DNA from: Candidatus Sumerlaeaceae bacterium | Lineage (GTDB): Bacteria; Sumerlaeota; Sumerlaeia; Sumerlaeales; Sumerlaeaceae | Reading direction: 5' to 3' | Length of the DNA: 64,000 nucleotides | Assembly (NCBI GenBank): GCA_049968255.1 | Contig: JBMFRB010000003.1 | Span: forward strand, 224,998-288,997 | In this document: one piece after another, positions 1 through 6,450 of the stretch | Numbering within the stretch: the stretch's first letter is position 1 | Layout: the number at the start of each line of letters is the position of its first letter | Notes under the pieces: generated by a model | Told to the model about the DNA's origin: nothing | The model's database searches: none | Seen by the model: only the letters and a program-made list of their open reading frames with translations | Made by a program: the position numbers and the translations under genes

Positions 1-3000
1 TATTCCGAAAAGGTTATTCGCGATCTCAACGAGCAGCTCGATCCGCGGGCTGTGCTCGAACTCATCAATTATCACTCGGACAAGTTGCAAGAAAGCGGCG
101 AGACGTTACGCGGCTTTTGTCCCATTCATCGCGAAACGGTGTTCCGGACACTCATTATTGATAAGTCCAAGCGCACGTTTCGCTGCATGTACAGCTTGTG
201 CAAAGGCGCTGCGGGGGGCACGCTTGTCGAGCTCTACGCATTGGCGCAAGATATCCCGCTCGAAAAAGCGGTCGAGGAACTCGCAGGCCATTTCCAGATC
301 GAAGTGCGAATGACCGCCGATCCTGAGTTTCTCGAAAAGCAGGCCGAAGTGGCGGAAAACTATCTCGAGCTCGGATTTTACGAAGACGCGGAGAAGGTCC
401 TCCGCGAGATTGTCGAAGCAGATTCAAATTACGAACGGGCCCATCGTGGTTTGCTTGAGGTCTACAAGCATCTCGGCAACACCGAAGCTCTGGGGGAGCA
501 TCATGGCATCCTGGCGCAGTTGCTCATCCAACGCGGTGAACGCTTAGCGGCCTATGAGCACGTCAAAGCCTGGGCCGAGTACCAGCCCGACGCACCCAAA
601 GCGCATTATTTGTTAGCAGAATATCTTCGCGAGCAGGGCGACCTCGAAGCTGCACTCGAGGAATTCATGGCAGCGGCGGACCTCTACGCTGCGAAGGAGG
701 ATTTTCAAGCGGCCATTGATGCGTACCGCCAAGCGGACTCCTTGCGTCTCGATGTCGTGGATGTCGTGCCCCATGTCCTGCAAATCTACGAGCAGATGGG
801 CAAGCCCACCGAGGCCGTGGCGTTTCTCAGCGAACGTGCCGAGGCGTCGCTACTTCACGCGGATTTTGCGCGCAGCGCCCAGCTTCTGGAACAGGCACTT
901 GAGCTCGCACCTAACGACCCTTCGCTACGCGCGCGGCTTTGCGAGATTGCCATTTTGGCCGACACGGGCGGCGACTGGTTACCACGCGTTTTCGAGTGGG
1001 CGCAGTGGTTTGTCGAGTCCGGCATGCCTGAAAAAGCCGTGCAGGTCTACGAGCGCGTGCTGGGCGCGCAACCCACAAACGAGGAAGCCGTGGAGCGGCT
1101 TCGCGCGCTTTACGCAGCAATGGGAAGGACAGAAGACGCGCTTGGGTTGCGCGTGCGCGCCGCACGCGTGGCATTAGACGCAAAAGAATTTGCGACAGCA
1201 CGCAAGGAACTCCAAGCGATCCTTGAAGAGAAACCAGATCACGCCGCTGCCCTTGAGCTGCTCGCGGAGGTGAACCTAGCGGCTGGTCACCGCAAGGAAG
1301 CTGCGGACTGCCTGGCCAGGCTGGCGCGCGTGTGTGTCGCGAACCGCGATTTTTCTAAAGCGGTTTCGCAGATGGAGCGCGTTCTTAGCCTGGTGCCGGA
1401 CGATCCCCGCTTCTTGCTCGATCGCGCGGAAATTCTGGAAAACTGGGCAAGCACAGGCAACGTCCGCGCGCGCCAGCAGGCAGTAGAGGCATTTGAAGCG
1501 CTCGGCGACCGTTATGCGCAGACAGATCCGCAAAAAGCGTGCGACATGTATCGGCGCTCCGAGGCTTGCGCTCCACCATCAGCGCAATTACTGCTGAAGC
1601 AGGCACGCTGCCAGGCAAAGCTGAGGGCTTTCGATGCGGCGCGCGAATATCTCCAGCGCGCTTGCGACGAACTTGTCGCGGTAGGACAGCCAGACGTCGC
1701 AGTCGAAGCAGCACGCGAAATCGCGGCAATGGCCCCGCACGATCATGGCCTCCAGCGTTATCTCATCGAGCTGCTTGAAGTGATCGGCCGCATTCCTGAA
1801 GCCGTCGAGGTGGCTATGCTGCAAGCGGACGCGGCCGCTCAACGAGCGGAAAAGGAGCGTGTGTTCGAGTACCTCAATTATGCACTCGCTCTGGACCCGG
1901 ATCATATACCCGCCATTGAGGCTCTTGCGCTCCACTATCACGGCACAGGCGATATCGCCAGCTACTGCGACGTCTTACTGCGTCTGGCGAATGCGAACGA
2001 GCAGCGCGGCAATATCACAGGGGCCGTGGCTGCTTTGGAACGGGTGGTGGATGAGCGTCCCGAAGATGTGATGGCGCTGGGACGTCTGGCCAATCTGCAC
2101 CTCAACCTTGGAAACGCCGCGAAGTCCCGCGCTTATCGGCTAGAATTGGCACAAATTCACCATCGGCGCGGAGCTCTGGAATCCGAGCGCGAGATACTGC
2201 GGGCGCTGCTGGAGGAGGATCCAGAGGAGGAAAATGTTCTGGCGGCCCTCATCGATTGCGAGTTTGGCCTGGGCAATCGCGAGCAAGCCTGTGCGCGTGC
2301 GGTCGAGCTGGCTCGCTTACAAATGAAGCGCGGTTTTGCAGCTCAGGCGCGTACCACGCTCGAGAAGGCGATCGCGAAAGAGCCCGATGATCTCGGCGTG
2401 AATCGCCTGCTCTTTGAACTAGTGCGCCAACTCGGCAGCGCGCAGGAAACCGTCGAACGCGGCCTCCACCTTGTCGAGCTACTTCAGCTTTACGAGCAGT
2501 TGGACGACGCAGTCGCTGTTTTCGAGCAAACGACGGAGGCTGATCCAAACAACTTCGAGTTGTTTCGCAAGTATGTCGCGTTTTTGCGCGAGATTGGGCG
2601 CACAGAGGAAACGCTTGAAAAGCTCTTTGCCATCGCGCGGCGGCTGCGTGCAAGCGGCCAATTTGAAGAAGCAGAAAAAGCACTGCTCGAGATTGAGCAG
2701 TCACGTCCGCTGGACATACCCGAGCTCGAAGAAGCTCTCTCGCTCTACGAGCAGTGGGGCAAGCCCGAGCAGTTTGCACAGCGTGCCATTGAGTTAGCGC
2801 GCACCTATGAAACGAGTGGCCAGGACAAAAAGACGTTGACTCTTCTGCGGCGCGCACTCAAGGTGACGAATGGTCATCCGGAGGTGCGACGCGAACTTGC
2901 GGAAGCTTATGCGCGGCAGGGGCGTCCGGCTGATGCGGTGCGCGAGCTTGTGCAACTGGCCGACGCCTTTGTTGGGGCTGGCAAGCGCGACGACGAACTT

Positions 3001-6000: not shown

Positions 6001-6450
6001 GCGGGCAAGGAACGCGCGCAGGAAGAATTCTTTCACATCTTCAATGCACTCTTCCAAGCAAAAAAACAAATCGTCATCACAAGCGATCGGCCGCCGAAGG
6101 ACATAGCAAGGCTCGAAAACAGGTTACTTTCGCGCTTTGGCGCTGGGGTGATTGTGGACATTGCCCCGCCTGATCTCGAAACGCGCATCGCCATTCTCAA
6201 CCGAGAAATTGAGCGCGGCGAAGTTGATATTCCCGACGCGGTCGTCCAACTCATCGCCGAAACCATTGATACCAATGTGCGCGAGCTCAAAGGCGCGTTG
6301 AACCAAGTCATGGCGATGCACACGATCCAAGGCAAAGAGATCAACACAGCAAACGTTCGGCAGATGTTGGAGTCACTTTACGCGCGTCCAACTGCCGTGG
6401 AGAAGCAGCCTCCGCAAGAATCGGCGAAAGATAAAAAGAAAAAAAGTTAG
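1..6450 (+). CDS. Giant fusion protein: DnaG-like CHC2 zinc-binding domain + long TPR-like helical repeat array + C-terminal DnaA-type AAA+ domain (no domain IV); 5'-truncated by the window edge
   Basis: Frame is open from base 1 ([22 protein letters not shown]..), so the GTG at 52 is probably not the true start. N-terminus: CPIH-x18-CMYSLC followed by [20 protein letters not shown] (primase ZBD pattern). Middle: Ala/Leu/Glu-rich helix-Pro-helix repeats. From ~5671: [29 protein letters not shown] (Walker A), [27 protein letters not shown] (Walker B), [32 protein letters not shown]. Confidence 0.9.
   Translation, partial: [2149 protein letters not shown]

Follow-up and report, generated by a model that had tools for sequence, protein, structure and literature searches.

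The window analysed here, a 64,000-nt stretch from Candidatus Sumerlaeaceae bacterium (contig JBMFRB010000003.1; G000:C3:224998-288997 in our genome set), begins nine nucleotides into a gene for a giant protein of 2152 residues. In order along the chain, this protein joins a DnaG-type zinc-binding domain (ZBD), a repeat solenoid of about 1750 residues, an Ala/Pro linker and domain III of DnaA. On sequence grounds, the giant is a DnaA paralogue that is specific to Sumerlaeota, a bacterial phylum, and present as a single copy. We tentatively read it as an ATP-switched, DnaA-type oligomerising and single-stranded DNA (ssDNA)-binding module joined to a scaffold arm, which would act as an accessory to replication initiation. 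In favour of this role, two replication-protein modules, the DnaG ZBD and DnaA domain III, lie in one chain.

Architecture of the giant protein

Frame 1 is uninterrupted from window base 1 to the stop codon, bearing out the preliminary description of an open reading frame of more than 2150 codons, and extension upstream places the start just before the window, so that the N terminus reads MGI followed by YSEK (protein P0002). The ZBD-solenoid-DnaA fusion proposed there is real and conserved among independent assemblies. The parts of the protein were delimited with sequence profiles, comparison of the solenoid with itself, tetratricopeptide repeat (TPR) families and AlphaFold2 (AF2) models scored by the predicted local distance difference test (pLDDT). 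All lie on the forward strand.

1..6450, +, coding sequence of the 2152-residue protein (ATG at G000:C3:224989, 9 nt 5′ of the window; stop 6448-6450)
1..315, +, DnaG-type ZBD, residues 1-108 (Pfam profile, family profile, AF2 fold)
325..5595, +, alpha-solenoid of ~33 TPR-like repeats, residues ~112-1868 (Pfam TPR, self-comparison, AF2, Foldseek)
5596..5664, +, Ala/Pro-rich flexible linker, residues ~1869-1891 (pLDDT <50 at 1878-1890)
5665..6381, +, DnaA domain III, AAA+ base and lid, residues ~1892-2130 (Pfam, phmmer, AF2)
5794-5817, +, Walker A (sequence)
5977-5988, +, Walker B (sequence)
6079-6090, +, sensor I (sequence)
6121-6135, +, box VII with the arginine finger, RLLSR (sequence)
6274-6288, +, sensor II, NVREL (sequence)
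6382..6447, +, disordered C-terminal tail ending KDKKKKS (last 20 residues pLDDT <50)

The C-terminal module scores 222.8 bits against PF00308, and phmmer aligns it with domain III of Bacillus subtilis DnaA (8bv3) at E 6e-80 as a single block free of gaps, which shows that it has kept the initiator-specific insert whole. Its AF2 model superimposes on 8bv3 with a template modelling (TM) score of 0.93 and a root-mean-square deviation of 2.0 Å. The module therefore holds both the insert and the catalytic motifs of a DnaA domain III; the Walker A, Walker B and sensor I motifs, RLLSR and NVREL all fall where they had been read from the sequence by eye. Against the DnaA equivalog model TIGR00362 the giant scores 343.4 bits, just short of the cut-off of 343.9, and covers model positions 61-340 of 437.

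The remaining parts of DnaA are missing, as are those of primase. The giant ends 22 residues past the lid. In this genome domain IV (PF08299) is found solely in the canonical dnaA on contig C2, and none of the homologues among the matches listed has it. Domain I (PF11638), which canonical DnaAs carry, has no match in P0002 or in the giants among those listed. Neither a TOPRIM/RNA-polymerase core nor a helicase-binding domain appears among the best 25 of 33 Pfam matches or in the precomputed list. The Pfam results thus agree with the initial view that domain IV, domain I and TOPRIM are lacking; the N terminus is the ZBD, and residues 112-1868 are the solenoid. The Ala/Pro linker, first placed at ~5600-5670, was likewise found there, and the predicted TM score of 0.51 of a two-domain AF2 model agrees with a pair of bodies connected by a flexible tether. 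In the family, this disordered linker connects the ATPase with a solenoid of 1000-1750 residues. The protein does end in the basic tail KDKKKKS, which is lineage-specific; tails differ among homologues.

Conservation of the ATPase and ssDNA-contact residues

In an alignment of 112 giants and 96 canonical DnaAs (nine from Sumerlaeota, that of E. coli and the rest mostly Bacillota, so that the canonical consensus is biased), we read positions in E. coli numbering, with functional roles that we take to be those of the individual E. coli DnaA residues. Walker A residues K178 and T179, D269 and R270, R281, the arginine finger R285, and R334 of sensor II are found in 100% of the 112 giants, as is D236 of Walker B, where D235 is kept in 98%. 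E204 is retained in 96% of giants, and the ssDNA-contact positions K243 and R245 in 96% and 94%. The equivalents of E. coli V211 and R245 that were first suggested by eye do align, with V1974 and R2008. At the V211 position, 52% of giants carry V and 98% of canonical sequences carry I, and the residue is hydrophobic in every giant sequence read. Other positions have switched in the giants: T246 to A (91%), G186 to A (94%), G173 to D (89%) and R227 to K (63%).

Across the family the AAA+ part is 57-87% identical, compared with 31-69% for the ZBD and about 33-36% for the solenoid, which points to strong constraint on the ATPase. Because 94-100% of giants retain the residues of the ATPase, the arginine finger and the ssDNA contacts, the early suggestion that the C-terminal module could co-assemble with DnaA-type filaments or bind ssDNA appears mechanistically plausible.

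A DnaG-type head on a three-helix solenoid

The zinc ligands lie where they were first reported, with Cys at nt 118-120, His at 127-129 and Cys at 184-186 and 199-201, forming the pattern C-x2-H-x18-C-x4-C. In the whole protein the Pfam Zn_ribbon_DnaG model scores 22.1 bits, below its cut-off of 24.9; it reaches 28.2 bits in a six-frame genome search and 29.2 bits in a 1365-residue homologue (P0019). A profile built from 26 family N termini (A1) finds the DnaG ZBD of B. stearothermophilus (1d0q), aligned along its whole length, at E 1.2e-3, and A. aeolicus DnaG (2au3) at E 0.028. The AF2 model of the domain has a pLDDT of 91.7, and a Foldseek search of the Protein Data Bank (PDB) with it returns 1d0q (TM 0.65/0.70) and 2au3 as the sole matches at E<1e-3, the next lying at E 0.46. 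Profile and fold together bear out the expected match to the DnaG family, and we assign the head to the DnaG CHC2 type of zinc-binding domain.

The N terminus is intact in 108 of 112 solenoid-type homologues. The pattern C-x2-H-x(10-25)-C-x(2-6)-C is present in 100 of these 108; in one, Cys replaces His, and in seven the second knuckle is gone. Our tree includes three of these last, which form one clade with 100% support.

Multiple Pfam TPR families match the solenoid, and comparison of residues 110-1880 with themselves gives offset peaks at 54 (z 6.8), 108, 162 and 386. In an AF2 model of the last 650 residues (18 sequences in alignment A3; pLDDT 86), each 54-residue repeat folds into three helices of about 13, 17 and 14 residues, with helix starts exactly 54 apart at pLDDT above 90. 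The TPR solenoid of about 1750 residues that had been proposed therefore stands as a set of helical repeats but not as classical 34-residue TPRs. Its Foldseek matches include the TPR superhelices of OGT and SPINDLY (E 1e-9 to 1e-11), and the ESM Atlas returns only generic TPR clusters, at 0.77. Homologues of 1365 and 1749 residues align with P0002 in two equally good registers, at offsets of ~761 and 360-384 residues; the length classes of ~1365, 1750 and 2150 residues are thus set apart by one and two super-repeats of 386 residues. BTAD and other such matches are repeat-level only. The protein is not a STAND NTPase with a TPR sensor of the MalT/AfsR kind, as its NTPase is of the DnaA clade of AAA+ and lies C-terminal to the repeats. 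The 54-residue three-helix repeat with its 386-residue super-repeat is of interest for repeat-protein evolution.

Occurrence in the phylum and authenticity

We surveyed 75 Sumerlaeota genomes, taking PF00308 at E<=1e-30 as a strong match and a strong match in an open frame of at least 860 residues as a carrier of the giant gene. Strong matches occur in 74 of the 75, with a maximum of two per genome. The giant DnaA-type gene is present beside canonical dnaA in 61 genomes, one copy each and never two, which answers the call in the preliminary description for the same architecture in related genomes. In five more (G023, G025, G030, G048 and G058) the frame around the second strong match falls short of this length, probably because a contig end truncates it. 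The carriers include two single-contig genomes, G006 (2145-residue frame) and G021 (2129-residue frame). In G006 (contig C1, about 3.3 Mb), dnaA lies at 1.06 Mb and the giant gene at 2.40 Mb; in G021 (contig C1, about 6.0 Mb) they lie at 1.50 and 4.61 Mb. This puts the giant gene near the antipode of dnaA, which in two genomes with an unmapped origin may be chance.

A word-indexed search returned 221 proteins of 1183-3766 residues. Among the best 120 of these, source names are Sumerlaeota, Sumerlaeia or Sumerlaeaceae, one 'Hydrogenedentota' and one 'Poribacteria', or else functional labels ('DnaA', 'DnaA/Hda family', 'TPR protein'). Some solenoids of the family carry a diverged AAA+ domain: P0245, P0257 and P0340 score 155, 107 and 15 bits against the query, and a 1440-residue frame in G033 (contig C29) scores 30 bits against PF00308. 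This suggests that the DnaA module has been relaxed or lost in some lineages.

The genome studied here also encodes a canonical DnaA of 479 residues with domains I and IV, a DnaG whose ZBD scores 127.8 bits in a 617-residue frame, and a DnaC/DnaI-like AAA+ protein of 231 residues. The canonical dnaA and dnaG that remained to be looked for are thus both present, and with a separate loader-like protein beside them the giant is an addition, not a replacement. The DnaC/DnaI-like gene (contig C1, L004 1258-1953, forward strand) encodes an N-terminal C-x2-C...C-x-C motif, and its start overlaps the end of a 224-residue open reading frame (L004 627-1301, forward strand). Weak PF00308 matches of ~240 residues like this loader are found in most genomes of the class.

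We considered whether the fusion could be an assembly chimera and rejected this, given its recurrence in 61 of 75 independently assembled genomes, two of them single-contig. In public read data, one DNA run contains 32% of the sampled words, and none of the runs listed as containing them is RNA. Its contigs, as far as listed, measure 186-431 nt; they reach 17 of 30 bins and bridge neither the ZBD/solenoid nor the solenoid/AAA+ junction. A second run (X2) gave no contigs. The authenticity of the junctions therefore rests on the independent assemblies. In a same-genus genome (G002:C14; L020 10001-11611; P0003) the orthologue is split into parts of ~536-548 and 1707-1752 residues, which is either a frameshift in a metagenome-assembled genome (MAG) or incipient decay.

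Phylogeny of the AAA+ domain

A quick IQ-TREE analysis of 75 rows comprised 30 giants together with canonical DnaAs (E. coli, Bacillota, Atribacterota-like and nine Sumerlaeota), MshEN two-domain proteins, tandem proteins, Hda and DnaC-like proteins. One branch, with 99% support in the Shimodaira-Hasegawa-like approximate likelihood ratio test, parts the 30 giants from every other DnaA-type row, and the nine Sumerlaeota canonical DnaAs form their own 99% clade. After removal of nine rows (Hda, two DnaC-like and six tandem domains), the giants still lie on one side of a 99.7% branch. Rooting by Hda and DnaC failed, as the outgroup branches were saturated at 10 and the root is unreliable. Constraining giants and Sumerlaeota DnaA to group together costs 17 log-likelihood units, and the approximately unbiased (AU) test does not reject the resulting tree (p-AU 0.139). 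The tree against DnaA, Hda and DnaC that had been proposed as a check thus returns the giants as a distinct group. By these alignments the giant AAA+ module is a distinct DnaA-clade lineage, with which an origin inside the phylum is compatible.

Two further sets of proteins were recovered alongside (P0006, P0008-P0010, P0013, P0014, P0016, P0017, P0125, P0133 and P0138). Members of an MshEN group (1870-2000 residues) have an N-terminal MshEN domain and two copies of DnaA domain III ~1250 residues apart, and those of a tandem group (600-700 residues) have two copies of domain III, with Gemmatimonadota as the source name of one. As far as domain content tells, DnaA domain III is reused by these other, non-initiator proteins.

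ZBD-solenoid paralogues and gene neighbourhood

The DnaA-fused giants belong to a larger, phylum-wide ZBD-headed family, in which most proteins lack the DnaA module. HMMER with profile A1 finds 849 cluster representatives at E<=1e-3, of which 268 reach E<=1e-10. Among 117 newly fetched matches, many are ZBD-solenoids of 2400-3200 residues without a DnaA domain, and others have 300-480 residues. Species-representative genomes yield 41 loci, 34 of them Sumerlaeota/BRC1 by record title and several genomes having two; 21 loci have the DnaA domain, 14 are complete without it and 6 are cut by contig ends. One to four ZBD heads occur in 72 of the 75 phylum genomes, and none in G005, G009 or G037. This genome encodes three ZBD-headed proteins, including two without DnaA.

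Contig C1, L064 1865-9676, −, ZBD-solenoid of 2603 residues without DnaA (upstream gene from 9757, −)
Contig C10, L065 2959-4404, −, ZBD-headed paralogue of 481 residues with TPRs and a conserved C-terminal region

Many Sumerlaeota genomes encode proteins of ~440-580 residues that resemble the 481-residue paralogue. Another ZBD-headed class of ~300-370 residues has a C-terminal motif like R-I-S-F-[IL].

Each of the nine complete large genes without DnaA follows, after 35-190 nt and on the same strand, a gene for a protein of 820-1240 residues, an arrangement found at none of 20 DnaA-type loci. SPOR domains are present in both of the upstream proteins scanned (of the nine), and the three that were read each have an N-terminal and a mid-chain hydrophobic helix. 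The pairing of the 2603-residue type of protein with a SPOR protein suggests an envelope-anchored scaffold.

Around the DnaA-type genes, nadC lies upstream at 7 of 20 loci and a SHOCT protein gene downstream at 5 of 20. In this genome the neighbours are housekeeping genes: uppS, cdsA, a bioB-like gene and a DMT gene lie upstream of the giant gene, and a radical SAM gene converges on it from downstream. An upstream scan for promoters and terminators gave matches at chance level.

Proposed function and alternatives

In DnaA, domain III binds ATP, oligomerises and contacts ssDNA, while domain IV reads the origin and domain I recruits partners. With domain IV missing, recruitment of the giant would have to run via ssDNA, DnaA filaments or its arm. 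We infer that the C-terminal module is an active, arginine-finger-dependent and ssDNA-competent DnaA-type oligomeriser. ATP-bound modules would assemble head to tail through the arginine finger, either with each other or by joining the end of a filament of canonical DnaA, where the DNA is unwound or single-stranded. As the module is joined where the domain I-II tether of DnaA sits, such DnaA-like assemblies would carry a long arm, and assembly would concentrate solenoid arms and ZBD tips at the site. The outcome could be an initiation complex that is capped, stabilised or tethered by an accessory scaffold or modulator. By itself the giant would be unable to find DnaA boxes and unable to prime, and it is probably neither initiator nor primase nor helicase loader. 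The earlier idea that it binds ssDNA at both ends is plausible for the C-terminal module and weakened for the ZBD end, where the head is general to the family and seven members lack the second knuckle.

Several observations weigh against a part in initiation. Beside the arginine finger, W288 is A in 73% of giants (W in 99% of canonical sequences) and L290 is V in 76%; on the sensor II helix, E337 is K in 100% (E in 100% of canonical sequences) and R342 is Q in 96%. The two sets of switches may face each other across a protomer interface, and they may insulate the giant from canonical DnaA. The first Walker A glycine, G172, is S in 72%. The gene is missing from nine of the 75 genomes, namely G005 (92% complete), G009 (66%), G011 (81%), G024 (94%), G033 (90%), G037 (91%), G046 (71%), G047 (81%) and G074 (87%); absent even from genomes at least 90% complete, it may be dispensable. 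Across 20 DnaA-type loci there is no conserved replication neighbour, and DnaA boxes are not enriched upstream: the consensus with one mismatch allowed gives 2 matches in 16.5 kb where 1.34 are expected. Finally, the ZBD-solenoid head is shared with SPOR-linked paralogues lacking DnaA, so the arm may serve a scaffold unrelated to replication.

This last point leads to the main alternative, doubtful yet substantial, in which the ZBD-solenoid family builds a cytoplasmic structure linked to the envelope or cell division, independently of replication, and the DnaA part is only an ATP-driven oligomerisation or nucleoid-anchoring switch without effect on initiation. Such a scaffold would fit the one to four ZBD-headed proteins of 72 of 75 genomes, the two DnaA-free members in this one, the position of all nine large DnaA-free paralogues 35-190 nt behind a bitopic protein, with SPOR domains in both that were scanned, and a DnaA-type gene devoid of replication neighbours. 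It accounts less well for ssDNA-contact and arginine-finger residues that are as strict as in true initiators, none of which an oligomerisation tag needs, and for the lack of SPOR linkage at all 20 DnaA-type loci. A speculative and rather unlikely proposal combines the two roles in a Sumerlaeota-specific apparatus of ZBD-headed solenoids. In it, a SPOR-domain membrane protein would tie one member to septal peptidoglycan, the giant would insert its DnaA domain III into the DnaA/ssDNA filament where the origin is unwound, and the two would physically couple initiation, or the position of the origin, to the envelope or to the site of division.

An Hda-like inactivator, which docks on DnaA-ATP and triggers hydrolysis through its arginine finger to limit re-initiation, would likewise be a DnaA-clade AAA+ protein with a conserved arginine finger and no domain IV. 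We consider it improbable for the giant, which scores 93.3 bits against TIGR03420 (cut-off 194.8) and matches Hda structures in the PDB at E 1.7e-9 compared with 6e-80 for DnaA; it keeps a fully conserved ATP site of its own, has switched residues next to the arginine finger and shows no clamp-binding motif at its termini when these are read by eye. DnaC and DnaI are also DnaA-clade AAA+ proteins, and the DnaG-like fold of the ZBD invites the idea, raised in the preliminary description, of a loader whose AAA+ part loads DnaB as DnaC does while the ZBD recruits or mimics primase. That idea is weakened by the separate DnaC/DnaI-like protein with its own zinc motif, and it seems very improbable: the 32.9 bits of IstB_IS21 (PF01695), although above the Pfam cut-off, lie under the far stronger PF00308 match of 222.8 bits, PDB loader matches reach only E 2e-6, there is no DnaB-binding domain, and seven family members lack zinc ligands. 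An assembly chimera, pseudogene, or mobile or defence element can hardly be the explanation. The same-genus frame split (536 and 1707 residues) and the junctions left unbridged by public read contigs would allow it; on the other side stand 61 of 75 carrier genomes including two single-contig ones, 112 database proteins from several sources, a single copy per genome with identities that drop from genus to class, and a PADLOC scan with four matches, all at or below 17.5 bits.

In model bacteria, the paralogues of the DnaA family that lack domain IV, Hda and DnaC/DnaI, have central roles as regulators and loaders. If it does serve initiation as an accessory, the giant would be a third and structurally very different reuse of the DnaA ATP switch, conserved throughout a largely uncultured phylum, and were it to couple initiation to the envelope, this would be a new kind of initiation control by a second ATP-switched DnaA module. 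Since its ATPase is conserved like that of an essential initiator, these proposals are testable with recombinant fragments. There is also a practical consequence. Annotation pipelines call giants 'chromosomal replication initiator protein DnaA', and the protein studied here scores 0.5 bit under the NCBIfam equivalog cut-off; Sumerlaeota MAGs can therefore appear to contain two dnaA genes.

Comparison with known systems

Our literature search found no description of a ZBD-solenoid-DnaA domain III architecture, and the accessible part of a Sumerlaeota genomics paper (PMC8092238) makes no mention of DnaA, TPR, tetratricopeptide or primase.

Among AAA+ proteins without a DnaA-box reader, the DnaC/DnaI/IstB loaders (PF01695; 2w58, 2qgz) belong like the giant to the initiator/loader clade, and DnaI shares with it an N-terminal zinc module. 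Their similarity is weak (32.9 bits, PDB E 2e-6), and the NCBIfam loader models NF038214 and NF006505 give 38.7-54.1 bits against cut-offs of 200-228. Hda/HdaA (TIGR03420; 5x06, 3bos) is likewise a DnaA-clade AAA+ protein without domain IV that coexists with DnaA, but the giant is about nine times longer, keeps the ssDNA-contact residues and scores 343 bits to DnaA as against 93 to Hda.

The head has the fold of the DnaG ZBD (PF01807; 1d0q, 2au3) across the whole domain, with CHC2-type ligands, and its second knuckle is C-x4-C where that of 1d0q is C-x2-C. Unlike DnaG, the giant has no TOPRIM/polymerase core or helicase-binding domain behind this head, which instead caps a solenoid in a Sumerlaeota family. 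The OGT and SPINDLY TPR superhelices are antiparallel alpha-solenoids as in the giant, but their repeat has 34 residues and two helices compared with 54 and three, and the giant adds a 386-residue higher repeat.

The closest relative is DnaA itself (TIGR00362; 8bv3, 8btg, 2z4r, 2hcb, 3r8f), with domain III of the giant 52-60% identical to that of B. subtilis. The giant differs in lacking domains I and IV, in the ZBD and solenoid that make up its N-terminal 1890 residues, and in the giant-specific switches W288A, E337K, R342Q and G172S, while the two proteins have nucleotide-binding, arginine-finger, sensor and ssDNA-contact residues in common.

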